DNA from: Escherichia phage OSYSP
Sequence record: MF402939
DNA length: 64,000 nucleotides
Strand: one strand, 5' to 3'
How positions within the stretch are numbered: position 1 is the stretch's first letter; each line of letters starts with the position of its first letter. The notes beneath the pieces were generated by a model. It worked only from the letters and a program-made list of their open reading frames with translations, ran no database searches and was not told the origin of the DNA. Below, piece by piece: positions 9,963 through 46,456 of the stretch. The position numbers and the translations under genes were made by a program.

Positions 9963-10384
9963 TATCTAGTTACCCCATCACTGATAAATACTTTACCCTC
10001 CATTATACGAAAAGAACTAATAGCTGATCCTATGACGTCTCGTGTCATAATTATATCATAGTATCCTGCAAAACGTTGGCGAGGGTTATACTTATCTCTC
10101 TCTTTGGTAGCTTTTTCGCCAATATTATCTACTGCCTCTACAGGTAAACTTATAGCTATAGCACCTTGAGCAGCATCAGTAATTTTAGTAGTAAAAGATG
10201 CCAAAGTTTCCGCATTCTCATCAAGCCCGGCCTTTATAGTACCCCTTAGGGAATACCCTGTTAAGTTAACAGGGGTATTTGTAGGTGGATAAGTACTATC
10301 ATCAACATCTAAGAATTGCATCATTAGACCATAAGGTACTTTCTCATCTATCACTAAGTCTATAACTCTATTTTCAGTACTCAT
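9962..10384 (-). CDS. Tail collar-like protein (T5 p132-like)
   Basis: 140 aa, same length and position as T5 p132. Confidence 0.55.
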
Positions 10385-10390
10385 TATTTA

Positions 10391-12463
10391 TTACCTTATA
10401 TGGATATACCCACTATTTAGGTCTATCTTCATCTTGTAGTATGCCTCAGGATTTCCTGATAACGCAGCGTTCCTATCATAAATGATGTTAACACCGATCT
10501 GAGATAAGAAAGCATTTCCTGCTACAATTTTATCTGCCGTCACCGTCCCGTTAACAATCATGTTTCCGTGGAGAACCATTGCAGGGTTAACCCAACCAGA
10601 CCCGTTCCATTGCCTTGTAAATGCTGATTGTGGGGCATTACTGTTAAATTCAGTTAATACATCATATTTAACTGGAGGAGAACCGAAGTTACTTTGAAAG
10701 AAGGAATTAGCTTGTCCATCATCCCAACCACCTAAACCTGCTATACCTACAGAGTACATCCCAGGACCACGTTGTCCATCATGCCCTATAGTACCTTCAG
10801 TACCACTCCACTGAACCACATCTGACCAGCTAGTACCCTCTAATAACCTATTAGTAACTGGATCAAGTGTACCCGTAGTCGCATAGATATTTTGTGTCAT
10901 ATCTGTACGGTTAGGTGGAGTTTTTGACCAACCAGGAGGTGGATAATCTTGTTCTAGTGGTTTAGCAGGTAGAGATGTTGCTAACTTATAAACAAATACT
11001 GTCTGTTTACCTTGTAAACCAGTTTCAATATCTACGTCACCATTTGGTGTCCCAATTACTACACCACTAGAGATACGCAAGGTAGTACCATCATAACGTA
11101 TCCATTGTGTAGCGTTACCAATGTCTAATTTAGCTTTGGCAGAGGTATTATCCATACCCATCCAAATACCGGAGTTATTATCCCCCCAAGATTTACCTTG
11201 AGTGTAAATTGCTGGGTTATCCTTACCAGATAAGTTAGTCATAATAAAGTTCGCAGCATTAATATCTCTAGTAATTACTTTACCATCAACGTTAACAACA
11301 CGGTTTATAGGGTCGAAAGAAATAGGTGCTTTTCCTTCTTCATCCAGTAGACCAATGTTAATAGCACCAGTAGCTGCGTCGATTAAGAATGTCTGTCTCC
11401 AGATTTCTCCATCTTTCATGCTACCCTTAATAAAGGCATAATTAACGTCAATACCTGTCTCATTGACAAAGCTATTGTCTAGAGGAGTATCTTCATTCAA
11501 TATAAATGTTACAGGAGCTGATTCTGTTATATCTTGCTTATTTGGTCCCCAGGCAATTGATGATACCTTAAAAGTATGCTCAACTTTCCATGGGAATGAT
11601 ATAATCGTTGCAGCTCTAGCAGCCCCAACGTTTATCTTTTGAGCTTTATCCCAGCCAGTCTTAGCGTATTCTTCAGAGTTTATATAAGTAACCAGAAATT
11701 CACGGACATTAGCACCCGCACCACGTTCCCAGTCCCACTCTATTCTGACATCATATCGTTCCTTACCATCTGCAATTCGTGCAGCTTTAAAGGCAATGTT
11801 AGTAGGTGCAGTAGGTGGTACAAAATTATAAGCTACAGTGAAAACGCTAGGATATTCATAATAACCAGATGAGTCAACTGTAACACCATCTGGCATCGTA
11901 ACTTGACCAGATATTCTGATCTTATAGTCGCCAACGGGAACACCACCAAATTTGATAGTAGGTCCCAGCGCGCCTATATAGTATTTAACCCATTCACTAT
12001 CTTCTGATGCAGTACTTTTTAATTCAATAGTGCAGTAACTAGCTTCACCAGTAGTCTCTACAACAACTATTGGAGCACCAACACCAACGTCAACGGGTTC
12101 TGATTCAGATCTTGCTGCAGTAATTATTGGCTTTTCCTTTGTTCTAAAGTTAGTTTCATTAGAGAGGTTTATACCAATTTTTGCATTTAAAAGTTCTGAG
12201 TCGATAATTGAATCATAGAAAGCCCCCTGAACCTGGTAGGTGGTTGAGGGGGTTAAATTATTAATCATTACGAAGAAAGTATCTATACCGGTATAATCAC
12301 GTCTATCTATACTTTCTCCTATTTTTAACCAAAAAGATCTACCAATAACATCATAATCAGTATAAATGGAGTGCTGGACATAAGCCAAAGTATATCCAGT
12401 CATTATACTATTTAAGACCATTTTGGCTGGTGCATTATTTGAAATCATTAAATGGATGCCCAC
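10391..12463 (-). CDS. Baseplate/tail tip protein (T5 pb4-like)
   Basis: 690 aa; position and size match T5 pb4; overlaps upstream gene by 16 nt. Confidence 0.65.
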   Translation of the reverse strand: MGIHLMISNNAPAKMVLNSIMTGYTLAYVQHSIYTDYDVIGRSFWLKIGESIDRRDYTGIDTFFVMINNLTPSTTYQVQGAFYDSIIDSELLNAKIGINLSNETNFRTKEKPIITAARSESEPVDVGVGAPIVVVETTGEASYCTIELKSTASEDSEWVKYYIGALGPTIKFGGVPVGDYKIRISGQVTMPDGVTVDSSGYYEYPSVFTVAYNFVPPTAPTNIAFKAARIADGKERYDVRIEWDWERGAGANVREFLVTYINSEEYAKTGWDKAQKINVGAARAATIISFPWKVEHTFKVSSIAWGPNKQDITESAPVTFILNEDTPLDNSFVNETGIDVNYAFIKGSMKDGEIWRQTFLIDAATGAINIGLLDEEGKAPISFDPINRVVNVDGKVITRDINAANFIMTNLSGKDNPAIYTQGKSWGDNNSGIWMGMDNTSAKAKLDIGNATQWIRYDGTTLRISSGVVIGTPNGDVDIETGLQGKQTVFVYKLATSLPAKPLEQDYPPPGWSKTPPNRTDMTQNIYATTGTLDPVTNRLLEGTSWSDVVQWSGTEGTIGHDGQRGPGMYSVGIAGLGGWDDGQANSFFQSNFGSPPVKYDVLTEFNSNAPQSAFTRQWNGSGWVNPAMVLHGNMIVNGTVTADKIVAGNAFLSQIGVNIIYDRNAALSGNPEAYYKMKIDLNSGYIHIR

Positions 12464-29060: not shown

Positions 29061-30377
29061 TTATTTACCACGGGAAATAGAGTAAATTCCATAGCGGAGC
29101 GCATCACAAAGGTGAGAGTTAGCATCATGACGTGGTTTTTCACGTGATAATTTCTCTTCACCTTCTTGGAAGTCCCACTTATAGTTCTGCAATGCATGAA
29201 TTAGGGAGGAACATGAGGCATCTACAATAATCTTGCCCTGCTGAAATAACGCTTGCAAACATGCTAGGCCATCTAGAACAGATTTTTTAGCTGGAGCTGA
29301 TGCAATTTCATGCTCATAAGCTAAGTCCTGGCGGAACTGAGCAGCGGCAGAGTCAACAAAAATACGATCAACTTTATAACGATCTATACAGTGCTGAATA
29401 TAAGCAGCATGCTGAGCTGTAGTTTTCTCCACCTGCTGGTACTCTTCTAATACATAGTAAGTATCCGTATCGTAATGATATTTAATAGTAAGAACTGCTG
29501 TAGGATCACGATAACCAACGTCAATACCAAGCAACGTTTCGAATGCTTCATCATCTTTAAAGAAGTGGCGCATACCTTTGAGGTCTTTAACATGATCGAT
29601 AGCATTAAAAGTATCAAAGATCTGGCCTTCAAATACAGAGAAGTCAGCCTCGTATTCCTGGCGGAAGTAGTTTTTACTAACTGTACGACGTGCTTCCTCA
29701 ATGTCATTCAAATCAGCACGTGGGTTATCACGATATGTACCATGAATAGATACCCAGTTAGGCAACGTATCATCAAATCCGTAGGCGTAAAACTCTTTAA
29801 ACCAGTTACCCCCACGAGGGGTGGAAATAAATAGAGCCTTAGAATTAGGTTTATCTAGAGTAGGACGCAGCTGAACCCTGAAGGCATCACCACCCACATC
29901 GGAAATTGCCGCCTCGTCAAAGATGATAAAATCATATGAACGTCCAACTGCGGAGTCAGCCTGAGCCGCGGAAGCTAGTTTAAATAGGGAACCATTTGCC
30001 AGTTCAATCTCTTTATCTTTAGCGTTTTCACGTTCGGTTTGTAGGCCGTACTTCTTAATAAGACCACGAATCTGAGACCACCCGATATTGGCCAGTGAGT
30101 AGTTAGGGGCAACTACTAGTACCTTCACATTAGGTTCCAGCAATTTTAGGAACCCAAGAGTATATGCGATGAAGGATTTACCTACACGGCGTGATACACA
30201 CGCCGTTACAAAACGATGTCTAGGGTCCTCTAGAGCATTAATAATCGCTATTTGAGGGCCATTAGGTGTAATACCCTCTTGTGCTAGTATTCCCGAAACA
30301 GGTAGACGGAAGAAACGTTTGTCTATTCCGAAATCAATAACATCTACTGTGTTAACGTAGGGTCTTGATACTTCCAT
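29061..30377 (-). CDS. Terminase large subunit
   Basis: 438 aa; Walker A-like RRVGKSF, Walker B-like DFIIFDEAA, C-terminal nuclease-like region. Confidence 0.85.
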   Translation of the reverse strand: MEVSRPYVNTVDVIDFGIDKRFFRLPVSGILAQEGITPNGPQIAIINALEDPRHRFVTACVSRRVGKSFIAYTLGFLKLLEPNVKVLVVAPNYSLANIGWSQIRGLIKKYGLQTERENAKDKEIELANGSLFKLASAAQADSAVGRSYDFIIFDEAAISDVGGDAFRVQLRPTLDKPNSKALFISTPRGGNWFKEFYAYGFDDTLPNWVSIHGTYRDNPRADLNDIEEARRTVSKNYFRQEYEADFSVFEGQIFDTFNAIDHVKDLKGMRHFFKDDEAFETLLGIDVGYRDPTAVLTIKYHYDTDTYYVLEEYQQVEKTTAQHAAYIQHCIDRYKVDRIFVDSAAAQFRQDLAYEHEIASAPAKKSVLDGLACLQALFQQGKIIVDASCSSLIHALQNYKWDFQEGEEKLSREKPRHDANSHLCDALRYGIYSISRGK

Positions 30378-30859
30378 TACTTCTTACCTCCAGTAGCTAG
30401 GGAAGTAATTAAGTCCATGTAGTTTTGATCCCCAGCTCCAGCAATAATATTATTCTGGATGTTGGTCTGATTGGCTGGAGTACGGGCTGCTGCCTTCACT
30501 TTCTCCAGTTCTACCATCATTTTCATTTCTTCCATCTTCATCTTGTGTGCCTTCCAGAGAATGTTCATAATATCCTGGTCAGAACCCATGCCGGTTTCTT
30601 CTAGTTCCTCCAGCTTACGCTTGATAACTTCATCCAGAACACCAAATAAACGATCCCTATTACGGAAACCACTCTCCATAAAAATATCATTTAAGTAGTT
30701 CTTAACTTCACTACGATTCATAATATCTCGGAAAGCAATTTCTGACATTCCAAGACTACGTGCGGCAGAAGGCACATCGCTGCCACACTGTAAATAAGCT
30801 TCAATCACATCCATCCCCTCAGGGGACATAAGATCTGGTACTAATACATCATTTGCCAT
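30377..30859 (-). CDS. Terminase small subunit (putative)
   Basis: 160 aa directly upstream of TerL; N-terminal HTH-like [15 protein letters not shown]; Met/Glu-rich coiled coil. Confidence 0.6.
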
Positions 30860-33850: not shown

Positions 33851-34002
33851 TTTGACTTTTGCCAATTTCTTTGGATTACGTACGCGTGGGTGTGTCCAGT
33901 GGCCCCCCAGATGAGAATGAGTCTCATTACCGCCTGGTACTTAGCAGGCTAATAGTCCCGGCATGTTATCATTACACACCGGGACTATTTCAACTTTAAT
34001 TA

Positions 34003-34737
34003 CTACGCAACTTTTAATTTCTCAATATATTGTTGCGGGCTGCAACTATATTCTGCGCGTTCTTCTTCGGTCATACCTTCCCAACATAATTGCAGGCGGT
34101 CGGCTAGGAACTGATAATCATTATCATCCTCAAGAGATTCATCGATAAAGGTTTCACCTATCAATGTAACCCCAATCGATAGAATATCGTTAACGGCTTG
34201 TGCGTCCAGCGTTTTAAATCCGTATGATGCCGCCGCTGATAGCACGCCTTTATGATCATCAATCATCGTGAAATCAGCGTTCGGATATAATTGTTTAAAT
34301 AACTCAAAGTAATGGCTTTTATAAATAGCGTCTTTGCTGTGGTATATTTCGCTAACTTTATCAGCCTCAAAATATTTGTGTAGTGTATCGCGGGAAAATA
34401 CACGGATATTACTATCCCCACGCCCTCGCAATCCTTGTTTACGCAAATAATAATAATCCGACTTGCTCATCAGTCGAGCGGTGCAAATAATGTTTAATGT
34501 ATTTGCGTCATTCATGCACTGGCGCATATATGTAACAAGGGGCAATAAAGTATCTTGCATTATTAAATCATGTTTGCAGGCTTCATTTTTATACTTATTT
34601 AAATCTAAATTGCCCTCGCTATCAAAGCAAGGCGCTACACGATGGAAAGAATTAATGATAGTGCCGTCCAGATCCCAAATCATGACGCGGGAAATATGCG
34701 GGAAATTACGGGTAATATTCATTTTAACTTGATTCAT
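34003..34737 (-). CDS. dmp: HAD-family 5'-deoxynucleotidase (T5 Dmp-like)
   Basis: HAD motif I IWDLDGTI near N-terminus; start chosen at MNQVK (GGAGAA RBS 9 nt upstream) giving 244 aa; the track ORF extends to 34779. Confidence 0.65.
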   Translation of the reverse strand: MNQVKMNITRNFPHISRVMIWDLDGTIINSFHRVAPCFDSEGNLDLNKYKNEACKHDLIMQDTLLPLVTYMRQCMNDANTLNIICTARLMSKSDYYYLRKQGLRGRGDSNIRVFSRDTLHKYFEADKVSEIYHSKDAIYKSHYFELFKQLYPNADFTMIDDHKGVLSAAASYGFKTLDAQAVNDILSIGVTLIGETFIDESLEDDNDYQFLADRLQLCWEGMTEEERAEYSCSPQQYIEKLKVA

Positions 34738-34817
34738 TTTGTTACGTTCTCCATTAAAGGGATTTAGTTTATCCAGCATTGCCCGCTATTTATCAGCGGG
34801 CAATAATAAATCAACTA

Positions 34818-35210
34818 TTAAAGACCATAAGCCAACGCATCAGCGATAAAACTAATATCTTCACCTGATACGCTGGAACGAATCCCCGCACAAGTATATA
34901 CTTTTGCGCTGATCAATTGATCATCGAGGCAAGCGGGGCAAGGCGCGACAACTGCAAAGGCTAGGCCGGATTTTACGGCGTCGATGATAATCGTTTCTTG
35001 TTTCACAGTATCAACATAAACACCTTTTGCTTTAATATGGCTGGTTAGTTTACCTTGCATATATGCAAAGGTAGTAACCTGCAAAGCGTCATTAAAATCT
35101 AATAGGTCATCAATAACGTGCCCCGCCTCGACGTGGTAACGTTCACCATTAGAATAAACCAGAACAATTGAGGACTGAGCGCGATCGAATGGAATATTTT
35201 GCTTTTTCAT
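34818..35210 (-). CDS. Hypothetical pre-early protein (130 aa)
   Basis: GGAG RBS; CPAC motif; no family recognised. Confidence 0.5.
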   Translation of the reverse strand: MKKQNIPFDRAQSSIVLVYSNGERYHVEAGHVIDDLLDFNDALQVTTFAYMQGKLTSHIKAKGVYVDTVKQETIIIDAVKSGLAFAVVAPCPACLDDQLISAKVYTCAGIRSSVSGEDISFIADALAYGL

Positions 35211-35248
35211 ATTTATAAAACTCCAATTAGTTTAATAATGGATTTAAT

Positions 35249-35506
35249 TTATTTGATAATAATCTGCATCTGGTACGGCGTTAATTCACCGTTTACGGGT
35301 AAATTATTATCGCTCAGCCACTCATAAAAAGCGTCATCGTCATCAAAAGGAACAATATCGTTATCACGGGAATCGACGGAAATAATACCATCCGTATTAG
35401 TTTTGGCGGCTAGGATAGGCCCGAAGCTGTAAACTTTATCAGATTCCATTTCATCCGGTGAAATGAATACTTTTTCGTCTAATGTTTTGGGAAGAGTAAC
35501 TTTCAT
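35249..35506 (-). CDS. Small acidic protein (85 aa), candidate DNA mimic
   Basis: AGGAG RBS; about 19 Asp/Glu versus 8 Lys/Arg including a DDDD run. Confidence 0.5.
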   Translation of the reverse strand: MKVTLPKTLDEKVFISPDEMESDKVYSFGPILAAKTNTDGIISVDSRDNDIVPFDDDDAFYEWLSDNNLPVNGELTPYQMQIIIK

Positions 35507-35561
35507 TTAATTTAGCTCCTATAATAGCGGCTATATTTCAAGCCGCTAGGGTATTAATTAT

Positions 35562-37226
35562 TTACGCGAAAAATTTACCGTTTTTAAAGTCGATCAAAGT
35601 GCGCTGACCGTTTGCATAGGTAATAACATGCGTTTGCGTCCAGCTTGACGCGCCAACGTTGTAACCCATGTCCAGACTACCAGCTACGCCAGCGGTATAT
35701 ACCCCGCCGTAAATGCTTGCCGTATGAGTATGCCCCGTGTTTAATTTGCCCAATTTCTTAAACTGTTTAGGATTGCCACGGCTGCCGTTAATGCCATTGT
35801 GACCGTGTACGCCGCACTCGATGCCTGCAATTTTAAATGATTGGTCAGTTGTTAGGAAAATGGCGTTAAATTCACAACCTGCAACCTTACGCAGCGCATA
35901 ATCAAGCACGTTGAAAGTATCGTCATGATCACCGATTGCCGCGTAAATTGCAGCATTTAGGCGGTGATATAGTTCCGCGTTTGCGGGATCGTCTTTAATG
36001 TTAGCATTACGATCATCAAGCCAACGGGATAGCGCTAAATCGTGGTTTGATTCCACGATGATTGTTTGAGAAAAATCGCGCTCCATTGACTCCAGCACGC
36101 GCCCCGTATCGATGAGATCATCCAGAACCTTATCACGTCCGGCGGCGTATTGTTTTGCTAGGAATACACCCGAAGCGCGGTTGTGATGGTTGCGGGATGT
36201 AAAATCATGCACGTCATGAATAAACTGATATTTAGGCTTGAGAATATCAAGCAAGCTATTTTCGCCAGCCCATGACGCAACGGCGCAATCGTCATCTAAT
36301 TTTTCGGCGTGAATATCGCCATATTGCAAGCCTAAAACATGCCCCGATGTTTCATAACATCCGGCGGGAGTGGCGCAAATATTCAAATCGTAAAACACGC
36401 CGCTTTCGTCCATCGTTTCAAGCTGGCGAACAAAAAATTCTCCGTCTTCGTCAAACTCAACAACAAGCGCACCGAAATTATGCAGCGCCTCGGCCTTTTG
36501 TCCTGCTTTCTGCTGGATGTAATTTTTTAGGGTTGCCGTTCCAGTTGAATACATACGACGCACTACTTCACCTTTTAAAGCTGGCACGCTTTCGGCGGTA
36601 ATTTTAGCGTGACCAATTGCCAGACCTTCCAGATTAAGCGCCGTTGCAGTTTCAGCGAATCCAGAAAGCGGATAATCTGCGGTTGGCAAAACGTTAATTT
36701 CAGCCATGAAAGCAAAACGGCGGTTATTTAAAAACACGTTTTTATTGCAGATATATTTGTCAAATGCGGAATCATATTTTATTCCTTCTGCACCCTCGCC
36801 ATTTTGAAAACCGTTTTTGTTATAAATAAACTTGCTAACCAGCAAATCAGCGCCGATATATTTAGCAAATTGCTCCAGTGAGGCTAAAAAGTTTTTATGC
36901 GGGAAAGTATTATTCTGAATCGACGTAATAATAAAGCGTTTACCCTGCTTTACTTCCCATTGCTCAACCGTGCTAGAAACAATCCCCGCCGCTTCTGGAC
37001 GCTCATCGTTTTTAATGGCTTTTGCTACTTTCGCCGCTTTCGGTTTAGCTGGTTTATTTGCTTCCAACCAGTCGCAGATAGCGGTCGAGTGTTTTGTTGT
37101 ATCGTAGACCGCTTTTGATATATCGTCGCAGACCTCCAGTTTAGTAGCGCGCAGACGTTTACCATAGAAATTAAAGTCAGCGGCCATTTTCAGGATAACG
37201 GTTTGTTTTTCTGCGGAAATAATCAT
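35562..37226 (-). CDS. A1: A1-like pre-early protein with metallophosphoesterase motifs
   Basis: 554 aa (T5 A1 about 556); calcineurin-like motifs GDIH, HDVHD, ESNHD, GHTH; sits beside an A2-like gene. Confidence 0.75.
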   Translation of the reverse strand: MIISAEKQTVILKMAADFNFYGKRLRATKLEVCDDISKAVYDTTKHSTAICDWLEANKPAKPKAAKVAKAIKNDERPEAAGIVSSTVEQWEVKQGKRFIITSIQNNTFPHKNFLASLEQFAKYIGADLLVSKFIYNKNGFQNGEGAEGIKYDSAFDKYICNKNVFLNNRRFAFMAEINVLPTADYPLSGFAETATALNLEGLAIGHAKITAESVPALKGEVVRRMYSTGTATLKNYIQQKAGQKAEALHNFGALVVEFDEDGEFFVRQLETMDESGVFYDLNICATPAGCYETSGHVLGLQYGDIHAEKLDDDCAVASWAGENSLLDILKPKYQFIHDVHDFTSRNHHNRASGVFLAKQYAAGRDKVLDDLIDTGRVLESMERDFSQTIIVESNHDLALSRWLDDRNANIKDDPANAELYHRLNAAIYAAIGDHDDTFNVLDYALRKVAGCEFNAIFLTTDQSFKIAGIECGVHGHNGINGSRGNPKQFKKLGKLNTGHTHTASIYGGVYTAGVAGSLDMGYNVGASSWTQTHVITYANGQRTLIDFKNGKFFA

Positions 37227-37322
37227 ATTAATAAAACTCCATTAAAGGGATTAAAAACGTTTGTTATTGGCAAATATTGCCAAATATAACGCCTTGAATA
37301 ATAGGCGTTATAATTTGCAACA

Positions 37323-37520
37323 TTAATTTAAAGGCATAAGGCTAGAACTAACACCACAAGCAACGGCGGCAATAAAACAAATCAGACCTAAACGCTTTGC
37401 CAATTTAGACTTACGTTTAAAATAATATGAGTCTAAATCATTTTGAAAATAAGCGAATAATAACGAGGCCGCCATAATAAATAAGCCTAGAATGAGGGAT
37501 TCAGTAGGGTAAAAGATCAT
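37323..37520 (-). CDS. Small membrane protein (65 aa)
   Basis: GGAG RBS; two hydrophobic helices. Confidence 0.45.
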   Translation of the reverse strand: MIFYPTESLILGLFIMAASLLFAYFQNDLDSYYFKRKSKLAKRLGLICFIAAVACGVSSSLMPLN

Positions 37521-37576
37521 TTTAAAACTCCAGTCAAAGGGAAATTATAGTGGGGAATATTCCCCACTAATTAAAT

Positions 37577-37984
37577 TTATTCGCCTGCGGCTTGTTTTAC
37601 TTCATCGGCAACGCCTAACAGTTGCGCCACGGCGTCCAGTGTTTCAAGTTTTGCACTTTCCAGACTTGCCAGATCATCGGCGTCTTTGATAATGCCGGAA
37701 TCAATAGCATGTTTAGCGATAACGCGTACATAGTGAGCTTTGCGGATTGAGCTACCGCCGCCAACTTTGCGCGGCTTATCGCTTTTCTGATACGCTTTCG
37801 CGCTGGTCAATTTTGACCGAACGGATACGGGAGAAGCCGCGCCCACTGCTTTTGCAATCTCTTTTAAACCGTAGCTATTTGCGAAATCTAAACCGTTTTC
37901 ATTGATTAACTGCTGATACATGGAAACGGCTTTTTGGGTGTTTTCTTCATTCCAAGCAAATTTTGCGGTTTTAACGTTAGTCAT
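37577..37984 (-). CDS. A2: A2-like pre-early DNA-binding protein
   Basis: 135 aa; GGAG RBS; basic central region; immediately upstream of the A1-like gene. Confidence 0.6.
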   Translation of the reverse strand: MTNVKTAKFAWNEENTQKAVSMYQQLINENGLDFANSYGLKEIAKAVGAASPVSVRSKLTSAKAYQKSDKPRKVGGGSSIRKAHYVRVIAKHAIDSGIIKDADDLASLESAKLETLDAVAQLLGVADEVKQAAGE

Positions 37985-38082
37985 GGTAAAAACTCCTATT
38001 AGTTTAATTTAAGGGATAAGATTAACATAGTGTTAATCATTATATTCCCCATATTTCAGAGGAATATAAAGTTAACACTAAA

Positions 38083-38334
38083 TTATAACACAGCTTCCCA
38101 TTTTTCGTTACGCTGTACAACCTTTACAACGTCGCCGGATTTAACGCGAACGCTAAAAACGGTTTTGCCGTTGTTACTACGTTCATTTTCAGCGTATACC
38201 GCGTCGATTGTATCAAACGGCATAAGCGCCGCACCTTTAATACGTTCGGCTTTTCCGGTTAGTTCATCCGTTTTAGTAACGAAAGGAATAAAAACGGATT
38301 GACCAATTTTAGGCGCGGTAATAACGTTTTTCAT
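38083..38334 (-). CDS. Hypothetical pre-early protein (83 aa)
   Basis: AGGAG RBS 10 nt upstream; first gene downstream of the divergent control region. Confidence 0.5.
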   Translation of the reverse strand: MKNVITAPKIGQSVFIPFVTKTDELTGKAERIKGAALMPFDTIDAVYAENERSNNGKTVFSVRVKSGDVVKVVQRNEKWEAVL

Positions 38335-38370
38335 AATATAAACTCCTAGTTATTTGGGGATTGTTCCGCA

Positions 38371-38395
38371 TTACCTGCTAGAAAGTAGCAGGTAA
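38371..38395. repeat. Perfect 10-bp-stem inverted repeat TTACCTGCTA-GAAAG-TAGCAGGTAA
   Basis: Read directly; lies 37 bp upstream of the 38083..38334 gene start; no flanking T-run. Confidence 0.6.
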
Positions 38396-39223
38396 TAAGC
38401 AACAATCCGCTCACCGCTATAATCAATTTAAAGAACTCCATGCAGGCCGCTATATCCCAGTTAGGGGGCGGGACACATTATGGTAAGTGCCGACCGTCAG
38501 ATTTTATCAAGTTATCGCTCTTATCGAACTGAGTACATCTTAAAGCCTATCGGCTAGGTTGTCAAACAATTTTTTGCAGTTTTTTATAATTCTCTTTCAA
38601 GTCAATCATAATATTTCGCCAGATCATTTCTAAACCTTGCTGGCGGCCTTTCTTGTACTGCGTGAATCGGTATTTTACCGATCTTTGCGCTACTGTCAAC
38701 AAATTTTTTGTTTTGCTGTCCAGTGCCTTGCTAGGTTTACCAGTGATCAATAAAGTTTGTTTCATATCTGCGATTCCTTATAATGTATAAGTTTACCGCC
38801 GATAGACTTTAAGATGTACCCAATTTTTAAAGAGCGCGGCGGTAAACTTCCCGCCGTGTAGTTCGTCATTGCCGCCCTACGAGATAAATAATAAGGGATT
38901 CACAAAAATGGCGCAACCTTATTTTTGTAAAGAAACGTAAAGACAAATGCCACCGGACACCGTGCGGCGACCTGGGCGCGACGCACTAAAATTAAAAGAA
39001 ACGGGCGCGCGAATACCACAAAACATAGCAGATAGGCAAGTAATTTTTTCATTTATATTTGCTTTGCCCTACTTGACAAAATCTAAAAAACTCGTGGTAG
39101 CGATAAACGAGGGTAGGCAATGCAATGGCATGGCTAAAAACTTCATCGCGTTCTAGGGCGTTTTAGGCGCATTCTAGCCTTGTTGATAACTTATCCCCAG
39201 AAGCAAAAATGAAATTTTCCTAG

Positions 39224-39633
39224 TTATCCACTTGACTTTTATTTTCCAGTGGATAACTACTTATTTTATAAAATAAATTAATTGACTTTTATTTGTTAGT
39301 ATGCGTCGGAAAGATAGCAGACTAATAATTGCTAGGATGATAATCATGCTGGTGGATTGTAACGGCTTAAATTATTAGCAGACTATTAATCACGGAAAAT
39401 CTCATTAGCCAACTAACTATTTCATGATATATAATATACTTATAAATTAAGGAGAAATAATAATTATAAGAAATAATAGCTACAGTAAATATTAACTATA
39501 AGAAACTATCGGCCTAAGTGAGAACCACTATCATTTAAGTTATCCACAACGTTATCCACAGCACAAAATGATTTGACATAATAGGCGGTGATATAAGGAC
39601 TTTTACACAGACTTATCCACAGCTTATCCTACT
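39224..39633. promoter_or_regulatory. Divergent control region with DnaA boxes: inverted pair TTATCCACT/AGTGGATAA (39224-39256), palindrome TTATTTTATAAAATAA, perfect TTATCCACA boxes at 39540, 39552 and 39613
   Basis: Exact matches to the E. coli DnaA box consensus TTATCCACA read directly; duplicated TTGACTTTTATTT on both sides of the palindrome. Confidence 0.6.
39405..39435 (+). promoter_or_regulatory. Candidate promoter for the rightward pre-early operon
   Basis: TATAAT at 39430-39435 followed by ACTTATAAATTAAGGAGA, resembling the other early promoters; -35 is weak. Confidence 0.35.
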
Positions 39634-39914
39634 GTATAAATATACAAGGTAAAAAGGTAGTGTTAACAACTGCAATCAATTTTAAGCGGCCTAAAACGCT
39701 TTCTAACGAGCTAAATGCGGTGGGGTAATATTAAAGTAAAGTCTTCACCCGTCGCCCTGGTGGCTTCACTGTGTTTTGCTCTTTATTGCACCGCTGCGCG
39801 GTTAGCATAAAACTAGGCGCTAGGCAAGGAAAATAAAAAGGTAAAATAATATTTGCCCCTAGAAAGAAAATACCTTTATCATTCACTCACCGATTAACGA
39901 GGGAGGCCGAACAA

Positions 39915-40907
39915 ATGAGGCTTTATAAACCAGATAACGCAACCGTCTTAAAAGGTGCATTGCGCAACCTGCTGGATGGTAGCAGAACAACCAGCATTAA
40001 ACATTTTGTTTTCAATATTGAAACACTTCATCGTAATTTTCTTGATGATTACGATGCTTATAATATGAATAGTTTTCTACCGTTATATAATCAAGGGGCA
40101 ACGCTTGTTTTATATAATCAGGAATCTCACTTGCTTACTAGTCGAGGGCCAGATACTGATTTTATTATAGTGAAAGGCAGTACAGTAAAAGCCTATGATG
40201 CGGGGGCGGGCTTAGAAGTTTTCACGATAGAAAATTATGAGCCTTATGATAAGGATCTTTATGACGTAGAAAATTTTCTCGATTCATTTTGGCGTTATTT
40301 ATCAATTGGGTGGAATCGATCAGATTATCACGGGTATCGTTTTGCGGCTATAATGGCTTTTGATGATAACGGTAATTTTTTGCTACCGTCGGAATTATAC
40401 CCGTATGTATATAATGATTTAATAGAGGAGGCTGGTTTTACTTTCTGGAAAGATGAAGATCAGCCTATTGACAACACGGAAAAACATGCTGTAAATTCTA
40501 ACACTCAAAGCGTTAACACTCAAACTACTGAAAATAAAGGGAAAAATACTATGACCAAGATCGCTAACATCGTTGCCGCTAATAAATCCGCTGTTGTAAA
40601 CGCTGCAAAACTGGAAGCGGGTAAAATTGCACTGACTCAAATCACGAAAGTAGCGGCTAAAAAACCGCCGTTTATTATCAAGGGTTATATTGATACGCCG
40701 ATTGGTCGGGTAGTGATTGCCAACCTGCTGAGTGTAGCGGTTGACCAGTACGCCCCGAGTAACCAGAAAGCGAAAGCGGTAGCAGGAGCGGCTATGGAAG
40801 CGGCAATGCTAGAAATGGTGCAAAGTTTTAACATCGCTGAAATGATCGATGAAATGGTAAAAGGTATCGATATTTCTACTTTCACCGTTAACAACGAAAG
40901 CGAGTAA
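39915..40907 (+). CDS. Hypothetical pre-early protein (330 aa), two-domain
   Basis: Strong RBS GAGGGAGG; N-terminal domain, Asn/Thr/Gln-rich linker, Ala/Lys-rich C-terminal domain; no family recognised. Confidence 0.6.
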   Translation: MRLYKPDNATVLKGALRNLLDGSRTTSIKHFVFNIETLHRNFLDDYDAYNMNSFLPLYNQGATLVLYNQESHLLTSRGPDTDFIIVKGSTVKAYDAGAGLEVFTIENYEPYDKDLYDVENFLDSFWRYLSIGWNRSDYHGYRFAAIMAFDDNGNFLLPSELYPYVYNDLIEEAGFTFWKDEDQPIDNTEKHAVNSNTQSVNTQTTENKGKNTMTKIANIVAANKSAVVNAAKLEAGKIALTQITKVAAKKPPFIIKGYIDTPIGRVVIANLLSVAVDQYAPSNQKAKAVAGAAMEAAMLEMVQSFNIAEMIDEMVKGIDISTFTVNNESE

Positions 40908-40971
40908 TAATATTAAGCGGGGATTGTTACCCCGCTTTAATGTTCCCTTGTTAATTAATAGGAGGCTAATT

Positions 40972-41466
40972 ATGTCAGAAGAAAAATATGGCTTCTCACT
41001 GGGAGAAGTGAGCACGGCTAAACACGATATGATCATTTTGGTCGATTGTCATACTGGCTATTGCGGAGAAGGCTGGACGGAGGAACATTTTGTTCCAGCT
41101 GGCTGTAATCTGGACGCTTTCGCTCAGGAAATGGCTGTTGATAATGCTTCTCGTTTCGGTAGCGATGGCTATGAAGACGAGGAAACTGGCGAATGGTATG
41201 AAAATGAAAACGTATACGCTAGTCTTTATCATTATCAATTAAGTAAATCCGGCGCATATGTAAACGGCGGCGATCCTATTAATTCCATCATGAGATTAAT
41301 TATTAAACATGGTGGCGTCGAGATAATTGATAACAAAGCGGTAATATACGCAAACCGATTAAAACAGCTTGTTTATATTCCTGATAATACCCGATGGGAT
41401 GAATATGCTGTTTTGCATGACGAATTGAAACGATGTTTCAATATTGAATCCTTACAAGTAGTCTAA
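40972..41466 (+). CDS. Hypothetical pre-early protein (164 aa)
   Basis: Start at MSEEKYG with RBS AGGAGG (the track ORF begins at 40924); acidic, Cys-containing. Confidence 0.55.
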   Translation: MSEEKYGFSLGEVSTAKHDMIILVDCHTGYCGEGWTEEHFVPAGCNLDAFAQEMAVDNASRFGSDGYEDEETGEWYENENVYASLYHYQLSKSGAYVNGGDPINSIMRLIIKHGGVEIIDNKAVIYANRLKQLVYIPDNTRWDEYAVLHDELKRCFNIESLQVV

Positions 41467-41571
41467 TGTAAAGTTTTGTAAAGGTCGCCTTTTATGGTGG
41501 CCTTTTTTGTTATAATGCTTTTACACCAAAACGGTGGATTGAAAATTTTCCCAAAAATTTGGAGGCTTAAA

Positions 41572-41802
41572 ATGGTTGCATACTCTTCTGCTAGTCATCT
41601 GTTTACCGCGCAAGGCTGGGTATCTAATCGCGTCATCATTCATGAAATGGTGCAGGAGTTCGGCATTGCTAAAACTTACACTACCATTCAGGAACTATAC
41701 AACGCCGATAAAATCGATCAGCAAACGGCTGGCTTTTTGCTGGATACCCTGAAGGCGGAACATTGCACCAAAAAACAAGCCGCTAAAATTGTTTTAATGT
41801 AA
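41572..41802 (+). CDS. Hypothetical pre-early protein (76 aa)
   Basis: Start at MVAYSSA with GGAGG RBS (the track ORF begins at 41494). Confidence 0.5.
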   Translation: MVAYSSASHLFTAQGWVSNRVIIHEMVQEFGIAKTYTTIQELYNADKIDQQTAGFLLDTLKAEHCTKKQAAKIVLM

Positions 41803-41848
41803 TTAATAACGGGGCGTTATTTTCGCCCCGCTAACTAGGAGAATGAAA

Positions 41849-41998
41849 ATGGTTATTTTTCGAGCTATTCTGGCAGGTATCTTGGGCGCTATTTTATCGT
41901 TGTTTGCAATAGCTTTCGGTGTTCACGCCGTTATTGTCGGCGCGGGTATCGCCGTTTTTTCTTATCTGCTGGGCTGCATGATTAGTAAAGGAGAATAA
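41849..41998 (+). CDS. Small membrane protein (49 aa)
   Basis: AGGAG RBS; two hydrophobic stretches; below the ORF-track length cutoff. Confidence 0.45.
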   Translation: MVIFRAILAGILGAILSLFAIAFGVHAVIVGAGIAVFSYLLGCMISKGE

Positions 41999-42000
41999 AA

Positions 42001-42213
42001 ATGATCCGCAACGTTTCTCTTGCTCGTTCGAAAGGCTTTAAGCTGGTGGACGTTAACACGTTCGAGCGTGAAGATTGTAAAATCGAATATGTAGCGCGGA
42101 ATAAAAACGCCTTTCGTGTTACCGAGAAAAAATTCGATAAGCGCGGCAACGTGGTCGCTGAAACGGTTAAACATTTTGCCACCTTTTACGCTGCGTTTCG
42201 TGGGGTACTATGA
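42001..42213 (+). CDS. Hypothetical pre-early protein (70 aa)
   Basis: AGGAG RBS; basic; ATG 3 nt after the previous stop. Confidence 0.5.
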   Translation: MIRNVSLARSKGFKLVDVNTFEREDCKIEYVARNKNAFRVTEKKFDKRGNVVAETVKHFATFYAAFRGVL

Positions 42214-42335
42214 AAAGCGTTATCATTATTAGCCTTGCAATGGTTGGCGGTTTTACCGCCACCTTATTTAAAAATGATCCCCTTTTACTGGGGATTTTTA
42301 TGCTTTTATCTGGCTATCTGATTGGGAGGTTATAA
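42210..42335 (+). CDS. Small membrane protein (41 aa)
   Basis: ATG overlaps previous stop (ATGA); hydrophobic throughout. Confidence 0.4.
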   Translation: MKSVIIISLAMVGGFTATLFKNDPLLLGIFMLLSGYLIGRL

Positions 42336-42336
42336 A

Positions 42337-42681
42337 ATGGTAATTTATGAAGGCAATCGTTTTGTTGCTAATTGCCGTCCTGCATTGCTAGCAAATTACT
42401 TAAATCAGCTTTCACCAGCTTATAAGGGCGTTATTAATATTTATGAGGGCAAAGTGCATTATAAGGTTAATGCGGTCGTTGCCCGTGAACTAGCGTTTCA
42501 ATTTTTGACCTTTGCATCTTGTGACGTTCAGGTTATGGGTGAGGCGTTAATTGCAGAAAATGAAGATGATTTTATTAACATTTTTCGCAAGATATGCACC
42601 GAGCGCCTGATCATGAAAGGCGCTTATATTCAATCCACTGCGGATAGTATTGAAACAGCGTTTCGAAAGGTGGCGCAATGA
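42337..42681 (+). CDS. Hypothetical pre-early protein (114 aa)
   Basis: Start at MVIYEGN with GGGAGG RBS (the track ORF begins at 42322). Confidence 0.5.
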   Translation: MVIYEGNRFVANCRPALLANYLNQLSPAYKGVINIYEGKVHYKVNAVVARELAFQFLTFASCDVQVMGEALIAENEDDFINIFRKICTERLIMKGAYIQSTADSIETAFRKVAQ

Positions 42682-42836
42682 AAAAGTTTTTAATAGCTGG
42701 CATGTTTCCGTTGTTGCCTTATGTAATTTGCTGGGCTTTATATGCTCATGGTGCTAGTGTTCCCGGTGTGGCTTCATTTGGTGTATCGGCGGGCTTTCTA
42801 GCTGGACTATTGGCAAGCGTATATTTACGCAAATAA
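42678..42836 (+). CDS. Small membrane protein (52 aa)
   Basis: ATG overlaps previous stop (ATGA); two hydrophobic helices. Confidence 0.4.
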   Translation: MKKFLIAGMFPLLPYVICWALYAHGASVPGVASFGVSAGFLAGLLASVYLRK

Positions 42837-42855
42837 TTAATAACGGAGCGTTATT

Positions 42856-43050
42856 ATGAGCAATAAAATTGTTGTAACCAAAATCAGTACAATGGTTGAT
42901 GTTTTTTACGTGCCCGATACGCCGGAGAATCGGCGAGCGGTCGAGCGTGGCGAGTATGATAAAGTGATTTATGATCACGATGGTTACTATCAACATTTGG
43001 TGGATTCCTACGGGGAGGAGGAAAAAATCACGCATCGACTACCAGACTAA
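42856..43050 (+). CDS. Hypothetical pre-early protein (64 aa)
   Basis: Last gene of the rightward operon; preceded by palindrome AATAACGGAGCGTTATT; acidic. Confidence 0.5.
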   Translation: MSNKIVVTKISTMVDVFYVPDTPENRRAVERGEYDKVIYDHDGYYQHLVDSYGEEEKITHRLPD

Positions 43051-43090
43051 TAATCACGGGGCGCAACTACCAGGGAGTGCCCCCAATTCT

Positions 43091-43113
43091 CAAATGAGAA
43101 TCATTCTCATTTG
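43091..43113. repeat. Perfect 23-bp palindrome CAAATGAGAATCATTCTCATTTG
   Basis: Read directly; same core as the 43447-43608 repeat family. Confidence 0.7.
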
Positions 43114-43128
43114 ACTGCGCCCGCGATG

Positions 43129-43187
43129 GTTAGCCTGCTAATGATTAGGGTGTTACGTGTCGCCTTGTGTGATCGTTAGCAGGCTAA
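43129..43187. repeat. 13-bp inverted repeat GTTAGCCTGCTAA / TTAGCAGGCTAAC with 33-bp spacer
   Basis: Read directly; could form a large hairpin. Confidence 0.6.
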
Positions 43188-43334
43188 CTAATTTTTAAGC
43201 CTCCTCCAATTTTGCCCTTGTTTTAGTACCCCCACCAAAATTAAACGCGTTAGAATGCGATCTAGGACGTTTTAGCGGTATACTAGAATTATTCACTACA
43301 TAGGAATACTGTATATTTATACAGTAGGATATCC

Positions 43335-43416
43335 TGTGGATAAGTCTGTTAATAACGCCTCAAAATGGCTAGGATTCTGTCAAATCAAATCGTGCTGTTA
43401 ATAAGTCTGTGGATAA
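43335..43416. promoter_or_regulatory. Two consensus DnaA boxes (TGTGGATAA) in repeated context CTGTTAATAAGTCTG
   Basis: Exact reverse-complement matches to TTATCCACA at 43335-43343 and 43408-43416. Confidence 0.55.
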
Positions 43417-43446
43417 CTTAAATAACAGTGTTTCTCACTTCCATTC

Positions 43447-43608
43447 TTAAATGAGAATCATTATCATTCGCAGTCCACTGTCTAACCGATAATCATTTCC
43501 TTTCTTAAATGAGAATCATTTCACTTTTTGAATAGTTCTCATTTCCTTTCTTAAATGAGAATAATTATCATTCGCATTCCACTTCTTAAATGATAATGAT
43601 TCTCATTC
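43447..43608. repeat. Five copies of 24-bp motif CTTAAATGAGAATCATTATCATTCG (one inverted), Fur-box-like
   Basis: Copies at 43447, 43504, 43550 and inverted at 43584, plus palindrome at 43091; core matches 15 of 19 positions of the E. coli Fur box GATAATGATAATCATTATC. Confidence 0.6.
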
Positions 43609-43637
43609 AAAGTCGCAGGGCAATTGCCCTGCGCTTT

Positions 43638-44239
43638 TGTGCAAATCCGACATTGCTCCACGGGTGTTACGTGCGGGCATGTATGTGCGAATCCGACAAT
43701 TTTTGGTAGTGTGCGAATCCGACCCTAAAAACTTTTGTGATGTGCGAATCCAACAATGAATTTTCCCAAAAACTCCAGCAATCACGAACTGCGTTCGAAT
43801 CCTGTGGGATATGTGCAAATCCGACACGGTTTTTCTAGGATTAAGATGTGCAAATCCGACAAGATTTTTGTGACTTCGATGAGAGGGTGTGTGATTGTAT
43901 AGGTTTGAGGAGAAGATGAGAGAGCGAGAAAAGTTTGGGAGGCTAGAAGGATGCGGGCGCAGGATTGGTGCGGAGCACCTGATTTGCGGGGATTTTGGGG
44001 AAGAGTTGAGATAATTTGGGAAGATTTGAGATAGGTGCAGAAAAAGTAAAATTTTATTAGCAAAATGGGGCAAAATAGCTTGACAAGTGAAAATTTCTGT
44101 GGCTCTAAAAACTCAGGCAATCATGGGCCTTCGGCCCGAAATAATGCTGCCATTTTCAAGAGATTATATGTTCCTAAAAACTTAGGCGTTTGTGCAAATC
44201 CGACCATAAATTTCTAGGAACACAATGTACAAATCCGAC
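43638..44239. repeat. Nine direct copies of 15-bp motif TGTGCRAATCCGACA
   Basis: Copies starting near 43638, 43684, 43711, 43741, 43812, 43847, 44190, 44225 and a degenerate one at 43785; motif has partial dyad symmetry. Confidence 0.65.
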
Positions 44240-44280
44240 AGTAATTTCTGGAAATGTGTTTTCAAAAAATGTCTCCTAGA

Positions 44281-44340
44281 AATAACCGCCCTCCCTATAA
44301 CCGCCCTGTATTAACCGCCCTGTATTAACCGCCTATTGCT
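44281..44340. repeat. Four tandem copies of about 14 bp AACCGCCCTNTATT
   Basis: ATAACCGCCCTCCCTATAACCGCCCTGTATTAACCGCCCTGTATTAACCGCCTATT read directly. Confidence 0.6.
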
Positions 44341-44761
44341 AGAGTTTCTAGGAATATGAAAACCGCCTGAGTTGACTAGAGAAACAGATTTAAAGTTTAA
44401 TGTAAACTCTAGAGTTAGTGCTCAACTATTCCTAGAAACTTAGGAGTCTAGAAGAAAGTGTTGTGCCATCCTAGCAGATGAGCGGCAACAGGTGTATCAT
44501 CTTGAACACAAATATTGCCTTTAAATATTTTTAGTTATTTAAAAGTAAATATACCCCCATTTCATGAGAGCTTACTCGTGGGGCGCGTGAGTATTACGGA
44601 AGACTTAGTAATTAGATCTATACTCGTGCTGTCGCAACGTATAGACGTAATACTAAGTGTAATAATCATCGCCCCTAGAGTTCAAAACAAGAGTTGTTTT
44701 TAATCTATGAGATTATTATAACATGTGCCGCAATGAGTTGTCAAGAAGATTTTGTTAATGT

Positions 44762-45118
44762 TTATACATCTCCTTCGAAATTGGTATTGGGATCGTAAAT
44801 CTTTTTGGCTCCTGTATTTAATAGGAATCGTTCTGCAAGTTGTGGGTGAATATCAAAGAACTCTGTACATCCTTCGAATCCCTTTAAATTACAGCGGTAT
44901 TTCTTAAAGTAGATATGAGCAGCGGCTTCTAGATCTCTAGGGTTATGGGTTTCATAGATTCCATACACATATAAATCGTCAAAACCTCGATAGACTATCT
45001 TATCTAAGTTTAGAGTTTGAATCCTATTATGTGGATTCATGCTAATACCGATCTTTGTTCTCTTAGGGATCTTTGTCAGATCCCTGTTCGCAAGAATATA
45101 TACTTTATATAGTGACAT
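44762..45118 (-). CDS. Possible GIY-YIG-like (T5orf172-type) domain protein
   Basis: 118 aa; N-terminal YKVYIL...KIGIS pattern reminiscent of GIY-YIG-like folds; weak assignment. Confidence 0.4.
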   Translation of the reverse strand: MSLYKVYILANRDLTKIPKRTKIGISMNPHNRIQTLNLDKIVYRGFDDLYVYGIYETHNPRDLEAAAHIYFKKYRCNLKGFEGCTEFFDIHPQLAERFLLNTGAKKIYDPNTNFEGDV

Positions 45119-45836
45119 TCTTTCTAGCCTTTAGATAGATTCCTTTAGATGCTAAATAAATATATGTAGCAAGGAATGAAGATGTAGATCCTGTTTCTTC
45201 AAGAGTAATAGATCCCTTTGCATAACGCTTGGTTCTAGGAGCCTGGTTAAGCACAAGCGCAGTGAGACTACCTAATCCTAGAGCATCCATTAGACGTTTG
45301 AAGGAGTCCTTTTCATCATGGATAGCGTATAGGATATAATCTTCCGCTGTAGTAAGTTCTATGTCACGATGATGTGCCACTGCAATCCGTGCTACTACAG
45401 CTCCAATCGTTCTATAAATATCTTCAAACGTGATACTAGTTTCAAATGCTAACGCTGGAAGATGATCGAACTTACATTTCTTAGGCGGAATGTATAATTG
45501 TTCTGGATATGCTTCTAATGCTTCTCTAGCGGATGTTTCTCTATAAGCCGGGAGAGGTTCATCAATGATAACATGGATATAGTTTCCCATGTGACCTTTA
45601 GCAGTGGGGTCTAAAGACTTGAGGAGTTTATTCATATCAACGTAAGAATAAGCAAGGTCGGCTTTTGCTGCTTTGTTATCATACTTAATCTTACCACCCT
45701 CCCATCTAGCTGGGAACATTTCGCAAACAAACATTACTGCATGTTTCTCTTCAGTGGTTAAATCAGAGAAACAGCGATGATCAGCCCCCTTAGCGAGGGC
45801 TAGAATATTCTTAAACTTTACAGCCAAATCTTTCAT
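45105..45836 (-). CDS. Hypothetical early protein (243 aa)
   Basis: Co-directional, overlapping early gene array; no motif recognised. Confidence 0.5.
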   Translation of the reverse strand: MKDLAVKFKNILALAKGADHRCFSDLTTEEKHAVMFVCEMFPARWEGGKIKYDNKAAKADLAYSYVDMNKLLKSLDPTAKGHMGNYIHVIIDEPLPAYRETSAREALEAYPEQLYIPPKKCKFDHLPALAFETSITFEDIYRTIGAVVARIAVAHHRDIELTTAEDYILYAIHDEKDSFKRLMDALGLGSLTALVLNQAPRTKRYAKGSITLEETGSTSSFLATYIYLASKGIYLKARKNVTI

Positions 45837-46456
45837 TAATTACCTCTCTTATCTTCATTAATGACAGCTCCCAACGCTTCCATAATTGCATCTTCTAAAC
45901 TTCCATGTTTACTAGGATTATTAAAATGAATAGTACAAACAGAACCCCTAGAAACTCCAGCATCCGCAGGTGCTACGCTTCGCATATCAGATTCAAAAGC
46001 TTCTTGGGTATGTTGCAACTGTACAGAAGGGCCGTAATCTTCACCAAACTTATATGACTTCGTACTACTTACCACACCCCCACAAGGAACATTGTGCATA
46101 TCCGACATTAATCTTTTATCGGAGTTATTCAGCATTGAGATTGTCCCTGACTGCCATGGATCTCTAATAGTCACTGGAGTACTAGGGCGGTTCACCTCAG
46201 TCTTCACAAGTTTGTACCCTGCATCGATTAGTGCATTAATCAGGTTATCCGCCGGGATGCGAGCCGTACCAAAAATCTTACGAGCGTTGTTGAGCCTACC
46301 TTCAAAATCTTTACATGCTTTAATATTAGTGTGTGCAAAGGTTAGCTTCATAGATTTGAACTGTACAGTGGCAGTTAAATCTTTAAAGCTATAATCCCAC
46401 GTATTCAGTTCATGATCTGGTACTACTTGAATAGATTGTTGTGCATATAAAGTCAT
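45836..46456 (-). CDS. Hypothetical early protein (206 aa)
   Basis: Co-directional early gene array; no motif recognised. Confidence 0.5.
   Translation of the reverse strand: MTLYAQQSIQVVPDHELNTWDYSFKDLTATVQFKSMKLTFAHTNIKACKDFEGRLNNARKIFGTARIPADNLINALIDAGYKLVKTEVNRPSTPVTIRDPWQSGTISMLNNSDKRLMSDMHNVPCGGVVSSTKSYKFGEDYGPSVQLQHTQEAFESDMRSVAPADAGVSRGSVCTIHFNNPSKHGSLEDAIMEALGAVINEDKRGN

Follow-up and report, generated by a model that had tools for sequence, protein, structure and literature searches.

An array of same-orientation repeats on both sides of the terminal-repeat end in Escherichia phage OSYSP is the direct repeat D of phage T5

Short protein-binding repeats lie beside the end-forming cut in phages lambda (the R sites of cosB) and P1 (the pac hexamers); in P1 they occur on both sides of the cut, and their orientation matters. 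In F sopC, P1 parS and plasmid iterons, multiple direct sites of 15–20 bp for one protein are placed in non-coding DNA. The T5 genome record AY587007 is said to come from Wang et al. 2005. It annotates a 'direct repeat D' (DRD), with copies 1–9 at 9672–10409, copy 10 at 12073 (ORF019), and copies 11–12 at 79019–79048 (exo2/D13). A preprint (Davison 2020, 10.1101/866236) names "nine DRD repeats" without giving their role, gives ~9618 as the T5 position at which first-step DNA shears, some 50 bp to the left of copy 1, and reports T5 origins close to the middle of the genome and no expression of the replication genes from first-step DNA. A string search of the open literature returned no paper that prints the core of the motif, and no function has been assigned to DRD as of 2026. 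How T5 stops and restarts the injection of its DNA has been a standing question since the 1960s, and second-step transfer, in the words of a 2026 paper, "remains poorly understood."

The window, i.e., the whole stretch of 64,000 nucleotides analysed here and numbered from its first letter, comes from the record of Escherichia phage OSYSP (MF402939). By sequence comparison the phage is T5-like (Tequintavirus), as the preliminary description of the locus had assumed: window positions 43000–45000 were matched by 446 phage records, nearly all of them Salmonella or Escherichia T5-likes at 87–92% identity. Comparison with AY587007 aligned window position 1 to ~33,890 with T5 late DNA from ~74.7 kb on. 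The late DNA is followed by the terminal repeat (TR), collapsed to one copy at ~33893–44105, and then by early genes. Minus-strand genes included the small terminase (30377–30859) and the pre-early genes dmp (34003–34779), A1 (35562–37226), and A2 (37577–37984).

At the left TR end (~33893) the window reads TGTCCAGTGG, and the T5 counterpart is TGTCCACTGCC. The right TR end falls between 44105 and 44106, where it was placed by homology to T5 position 10139 and to the BF23 end, which the authors of that genome had set using PhageTerm. With the end marked by a caret, the window sequence is ctgtggctc^taaaaactcagg, the annotated left-TR end of T5 (10139) is ctgtggatc^TAAAAACTCAGG, and the annotated BF23 TR end is cttgtggatc^TAAAAACTCAGG; in two IMG/VR genomes the left and right TR copies part ways at the equivalent point. 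The right end lies in a conserved plus-strand element, TTGACA...CTGTGGCTC^T (44080–44106), and the TR-end consensus is TTGACA-N20-CTGTGG(A/C)TC^TAAAAAC, followed by a hairpin.

The repeat motif occurred in the window far more often than expected by chance. With up to three mismatches, TGTGCRAATCCGACA had 12 matches against 2.04 expected from shuffled sequences (none of 100 shuffles reached 12); with at most one mismatch it had 11, against a calculated expectation of ~0.01. Eight clear copies, all on the plus strand, were found at 43638–44240. Four were exact: copy 1 (TGTGCAAATCCGACA, 43638–43652), copy 2 (43684–43698), copy 5 (43812–43826), and copy 6 (43847–43861). The other four had one mismatch each: copy 3 (43710–43724), copy 4 (43741–43755), copy 7 (44191–44205), and copy 8 (44226–44240). 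Start-to-start steps along the eight copies were 46, 26, 31, 71, 35, 344, and 35 bp. Copy 6 is the last within the TR, the end of which lies 244 bp rightward, as in T5; copy 7 is the first beyond it and lies 86 bp past the end, a distance shared with T5 and BF23. Copies 7 and 8 form a 57-nt unit that repeats copies 5 and 6. The three remaining copies were also on the plus strand: one at 46093–46107 (one mismatch), inside a minus-strand early gene homologous to T5 ORF019, and a tandem pair at 4299–4328 (starts at 4299 and 4314), inside a D13/SbcC-like gene.

The preliminary description had reported nine copies, uniform in orientation and about 27–70 bp apart. The repeat and its orientation were borne out. 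The ninth copy was probably a degenerate plus-strand half-copy, CGTTCGAATCCTGTG, at 43792–43806, which agrees at 9 of 15 positions and was found only by an 11-mer scan with two mismatches allowed; the quoted spacing describes the short steps (26–71 bp) and misses the 344-bp gap between copies 6 and 7. The self-match of 11 of 15 positions given there was too high, since a recount gave 8 of 15 for the A variant of the motif and 10 of 15 for the G variant, mainly in the outer TGT...ACA. The array DNA is non-coding, in keeping with the earlier judgement: no T5 or BF23 gene is annotated there, and it is overlapped only by mechanical TTG-start ORFs. A known RNA family was also rejected for the array. 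The Rfam covariance-model scan of 42500–45500 gave no match overlapping it and a single sub-threshold chance match elsewhere.

The array is the direct repeat D of T5, already catalogued and not new; the preliminary description could not confirm a prior report of the motif, which is annotated in AY587007. Window copies were identical to the T5 repeats or differed by one mismatch, with the same consensus and flanks, and their order and near-identical spacing were shared with both T5 and BF23. Copies 1, 2, 3, and 4 correspond to the T5 copies of the same number, copy 1 having the position and flanks of T5 copy 1 at 9672. As in Repeat Region 3 of T5, the array lies right of nick 1 and the DRC palindromes, spans the left-TR end, and ends left of ORF018. 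The outlying copies also have counterparts: 46093 is T5 copy 10 (12073, ORF019), and 4299 and 4314 are T5 copies 11 and 12 (79019–79048, D13, exo2). The two phages differ in that the window has eight array copies and T5 nine, the counterpart of T5 copy 9 (~44345–44357) being a different sequence, and in two steps: copies 4 to 5 (71 bp in the window, 81 bp in T5) and copies 5 to 6 (35 and 25 bp).

Direct 15-bp repeats with DnaA boxes ~300 bp away resemble replication-origin iterons or a partition centromere, as the preliminary description had suggested. This reading is scarcely credible. The T5 origins lie near the genome centre and the replication genes are not expressed from first-step DNA (10.1101/866236). 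Annotation shows no rep or par gene over ~5 kb on the left side and 3 kb on the right, and no parA/parB-type operon near the array in T5, Kenya-K18, KEY, Roth37, or BF23. T5 is virulent and without a plasmid state, the copies are irregularly spaced, and an AT-rich unwinding element is missing next to them.

The surroundings of the array agree with the preliminary placement at the repeat-rich boundary of first-step-transfer DNA. From left to right, the region begins with the terminator region past the last pre-early gene, then a LexA-box-like palindrome, TACTGTATATTTATACAGTA (43307–43326), which is the 'palindrome D' of T5, matches 19 of 20 positions of the LexA SOS-box consensus, and is unique in the window. 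This palindrome recurs in Roth37, in KEY, and twice in Vibrio phage AG74; LexA goes unmentioned in the Davison preprint (10.1101/866236). Next to the right are two TGTGGATAA DnaA boxes, and between these and a terminator-like hairpin at 43614–43633 are four copies of the palindrome AATGAGAATCATTCTCATT. Altogether this palindrome, the DRC and palE–I repeats of T5, had five window copies against 0.06 expected: 33910–33928, 43093–43111, 43450–43468, 43554–43572, and 43589–43607. It resembles what we take to be the Fur-box consensus, GATAATGATAATCATTATC. The T5 receptor FhuA is iron-regulated. The hairpin at 43614–43633 (palindrome J) contains the plus-strand nick-1 consensus CCCTGCGC (43627–43634), which is identical to T5 major nick 1 (7.9%; 9661–9668) and also to nicks 2 and 3. 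DRD copy 1 starts 3 nt right of this consensus. A role of DRD as a general nicking determinant was rejected, since nicks 2 and 3 have no nearby DRD although copy 1 abuts nick 1.

To the right of copies 1–6 come a G-rich stretch with T5 'direct repeat A', TTGACA-N20, and then the TR end. A hairpin, GGGCCTTCGGCCC (44125–44137), lies 20 nt right of the TR end and left of copies 7–8. At its position KEY has ggccttcggcc; past the TR end of Roth37 and one IMG/VR genome the hairpin is a different one, cacggtg-aca-caccgtg; and in AG74 a 25-nt inverted repeat spans the TR boundary. The sequence at the TR right end, AAAAACTCAGGCAATCA (44103–44123), has a second copy 339 bp leftward (43765–43784), between DRD copies 4 and 5, and related CTAAAAACT words occur at 43724, 44172, and 44430. 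Directly right of copy 8 are five AACCGCC(CT) repeats (44284–44367), which were also seen at the equivalent place in T5, KEY, and Roth37, with one copy 36 nt from the T5 left end.

Farther right, a perfect sigma-70-type promoter (TTGACA-18-TATAAT with TG; 44744–44715, minus strand) points into the non-coding region. Downstream of it are a strongly structured stretch of 169 nt (−55.9 kcal/mol, z = −7.05) and a terminator-like hairpin at 44571–44553. The promoter and structured stretch (44540–44744, minus strand) may encode an unannotated small RNA, for which the Rfam scan of 42500–45500 gave no match. The inward promoter also occurs in Roth37, where a long hairpin, unlike in sequence, can be made out by eye.

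The array stands between convergent transcription units, with the hairpin at 43614–43633 on its left and the promoter at 44744–44715 on its right, an arrangement that would suit a transcription insulator or roadblock, in which a bound protein halts leftward early or rightward pre-early transcription at the TR junction and injection-stop region. Ordinary terminators are already present on both sides, however, nothing connects the motif with RNA polymerase or any known termination factor, and a roadblock leaves the bracketing of the TR end unexplained. Such a role is very improbable.

Among close T5-likes the entire 1-kb non-coding block was 90–100% conserved, above the level of the flanking genes. 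Because the whole block is conserved, motif and spacer are inseparable in these phages and distant relatives were needed. Eight lineages were compared: T5, the window phage, Klebsiella phage Roth37, Erwinia phage KEY, Vibrio phage AG74, and three IMG/VR genomes. The position of the TR end was compared in nine, namely the same eight and BF23. The DRD-bearing relatives ranged widely in A1 identity (Roth37 72%, KEY 66%, AG74 31%). The 12-bp core GTGCAAATCCGA was near-invariant in 69 copies from the eight lineages, at 1.3–2.0 bits per position, and the spacers between copies were unalignable between lineages (T5-like, Roth37, KEY, AG74, and IMG/VR). As read from these alignments, selection acts on the DRD motif and not on the spacers. 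Besides Roth37, KEY, AG74, and two IMG/VR genomes, the motif recurred with unrelated spacers in a 128-kb Vibrio-type contig, and within IMG/VR exact multi-copy arrays occurred only in T5-like contigs of 104–128 kb. The search of other T5-like genomes proposed in the preliminary description found the motif past the injection-stop repeats in phages from T5 to those of Klebsiella, Erwinia, and Vibrio.

Orientation was nearly uniform across the eight lineages, with 69 copies one way and two the opposite way. Combined with a self-complementarity of only 8–10 of 15 positions, this strand bias led to rejection of a symmetric dimer operator, which the preliminary description had suggested; the motif is better described as an asymmetric, direction-sensitive site. 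The order [LexA-like palindrome and DnaA boxes]-[palindromic repeats]-[nick consensus]-[DRD] was kept in the T5-like, Klebsiella, and Erwinia lineages, and AG74 had the same order except that the nick consensus was not seen. Copy number and spacing turned over on both sides of the TR right end. Even so, the end fell in the largest gap of the array in nine of nine lineages, with 3–6 copies inside the TR and 2–6 outside. In five genomes the TR end was placed without homology, by TR-copy divergence, self-alignment, or record annotation/PhageTerm.

The first few kb of second-step DNA carry outlying copies on the same strand. Copy 10 was kept in 20 T5-like loci, and KEY had three extra copies against 0.05 expected. 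The tandem pair at 4299–4328 encodes VQILQVQIRQ, part of the coiled coil of the SbcC-like D13 protein, and T5 copies 11–12 sit 370 bp right of the major nick 4 consensus. The pair was rejected as a conserved element, being missing from the KEY D13 homologue; it may reflect DNA-level selection or be a relic.

One relative differed. Proteus phage 1 (Novosibvirus) had no DRD array anywhere in its 102 kb, with just two or three degenerate look-alikes after the nick consensus. At 5170–5357 of its record strand there are about ten tandem units of 15–18 bp (reverse complement GGGAATAATAGAATGGTG). They adjoin the putative TR end on its outer side, where the T5-likes carry DRD copies 7–9, and may be a functional replacement for DRD.

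Uniform orientation and an unchanging core suggest that the DRD copies are most likely same-orientation, high-affinity sites for one sequence-specific DNA-binding protein, so that the earlier description of a protein-binding array is a sensible reading of the sequence. The closest sites, 15–17 bp from start to start in IMG/VR genomes and AG74, imply that the putative binder has a small footprint. A DNA-binding protein of the host, shared across gammaproteobacteria, could be the reader, with the region recruiting host proteins that, e.g., anchor or compact the incoming DNA. The core is unchanged in phages of E. coli, Klebsiella, Erwinia, and Vibrio while phage proteins drop to 31–45% identity, and the neighbouring elements look host-type: the DnaA boxes, the LexA box (19 of 20), and the palindromes resembling what is presumably the Fur box. 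We know of no E. coli consensus that fits the motif by eye, those considered being CRP, FNR, Fis, IHF, DnaA, NtrC, sigma-54, sigma-28, FadR, MatP, and the MarA family. The Proteus phage is without the array though Proteus is closely related to E. coli, and a search of 185,579 bacterial species for the paired motif gave 42 matches, with ~32 expected by chance and none of them enterobacterial. The few multi-copy bacterial loci were unrelated 27-bp tandem repeats, probably coding. A host reader is accordingly judged improbable, less so than a roadblock.

Among phage proteins the leading candidate is A2 (phrog_1725, 'DNA binding protein'), which is essential for second-step transfer and binds DNA, its DNA target being still unknown (10.64898/2026.04.02.716235). 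In the model of A2 (pLDDT 85) a helix-turn-helix at the N terminus is joined by a basic linker to a helical domain at the C terminus, and Foldseek returned weak generic matches to a transposase helix-turn-helix, Myb, and the TetR and LexA N-terminal domains. The core of the candidate recognition helix, VRSKL, was invariant in the window phage and T5-likes, KEY, and AG74. Proteus phage 1, without DRD, keeps an A2 at 41% identity with the helix core VRTKL; this near-identity counts against A2 as the binder. A2 proteins of DRD-bearing lineages were no more similar to each other than to the Proteus A2, and on these sequences A2 does not covary with the presence of DRD. A three-genome profile (present in T5-likes and AG74, absent in Proteus phage 1) gave no DNA-binding candidate; the only proteins that it yielded were one with a tail fiber annotation, a 91-aa protein of unknown function, a phosphoesterase, and an HNH nuclease.

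The account preferred here, which is put forward tentatively, is that the DRD array serves to restart DNA transfer, A2 being a candidate for the bound protein. Cluster one (copies 1–6) lies just beyond the injection-stop repeats (the DnaA boxes, the LexA-like palindrome, and the palindromic repeats), and cluster two (copies 7–8, with the outliers further on) starts 86 bp past the TR right end. When injection pauses, with ~9.6 kb inside the cell, DRD-bearing DNA would be the next stretch due to move. A protein made from the injected DNA, with A2 acting together with A1 as the leading candidate, would then bind the entering sites in turn. Each binding event would block back-sliding and pass the DNA to an A1–A2 membrane complex, and second-step transfer would resume. 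DRD is on the right-hand side of the shear point, so access for a cytoplasmic protein would require inward fluctuation of the paused DNA. A role in restart alone leaves two things unaccounted for: the location of the TR end in the largest gap of every lineage, and the tandem pair in D13, which is far across the genome.

The bracketing of the TR end is explained better by packaging. DRD clusters would position the terminase or an accessory specificity factor so that the concatemer is cut exactly at the TR right end. Ejection begins with the left end, so packaging should begin with the right end, and the inner cluster would take the role of lambda cosB. The TR right end in the largest gap of all nine lineages places the sites beside the cut, the end itself is a conserved sequence with a following hairpin (in AG74 the boundary is within the 25-nt inverted repeat), and a single orientation suits directional translocation.

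The evidence from the small terminase points the other way. Its helix-turn-helix recognition region (helix 3) is entirely different in the window phage and AG74 despite an identical motif, and the protein was rejected as the DRD reader, its DNA-reading helix being unconserved where the motif is conserved. The Proteus small terminase is also nearer that of T5 (52% identity) than the AG74 one is (45%), yet Proteus is without the array. The left TR end has no DRD and carries a different conserved element, AGATGAGAAYRAGTCTCATTACCGCC (33909–33934 in the window, ~7105–7130 in AG74), the start of which coincides with the TR boundary in AG74 and lies 16 nt within the TR in the window phage; it may be a left-end cutting or termination signal. 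Outlying copies in early genes would serve no purpose or, acting as pseudo-pac sites, do harm, and irregular spacing is ill-suited to wrapping of DNA around a ring-shaped small terminase. Packaging is a possible but somewhat doubtful role, and restart of transfer was ranked slightly above it on two grounds, namely that the helix of the small terminase does not follow the motif and that DRD is missing from the opposite end of the genome.

The two roles are compatible with each other. DRD could be the long-sought cis element of the two-step lifestyle of T5, family-wide from E. coli to Vibrio phages, through which one conserved factor, A2 or an unnamed protein, both restarts transfer and defines the TR end, although this combined reading is unlikely. 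If true, the DNA injected first and the DNA duplicated at packaging would be linked through DRD.

Overall, the comparison comes down to three observations: a 12-bp core that stays invariant as far as Vibrio phages, a single orientation, and two clusters that bracket the TR end. Core conservation, orientation, and TR-end bracketing are new here; they sharpen the experiments without settling the mechanism, and the comparative picture offers a concrete, cheap target for binding assays and T5 reverse genetics.

Like the repeats of lambda cosB and P1 pac, the DRD copies are short repeats flanking an end-forming cut, and they are two-sided as in P1 pac. They differ in distance, the clusters lying 86–467 bp from the cut compared with within ~100 bp, in that the putative reader helix of the small terminase does not track the motif, and in the absence of DRD from the other genome end. 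Compared with iterons and centromeres, DRD has no rep or par neighbour, lies off the mapped origin, is irregularly spaced, and belongs to a virulent phage. The DnaA-box clusters of oriC, which Davison used as an analogy for the injection-stop repeats, share with DRD the character of ordered, oriented short sites, and DnaA boxes are also present in this non-coding stretch. In reverse complement, DRD agrees with a relaxed DnaA box at only 7–8 of 9 positions, however, and the 12–15 bp over which DRD is conserved exceed the 9-mer.
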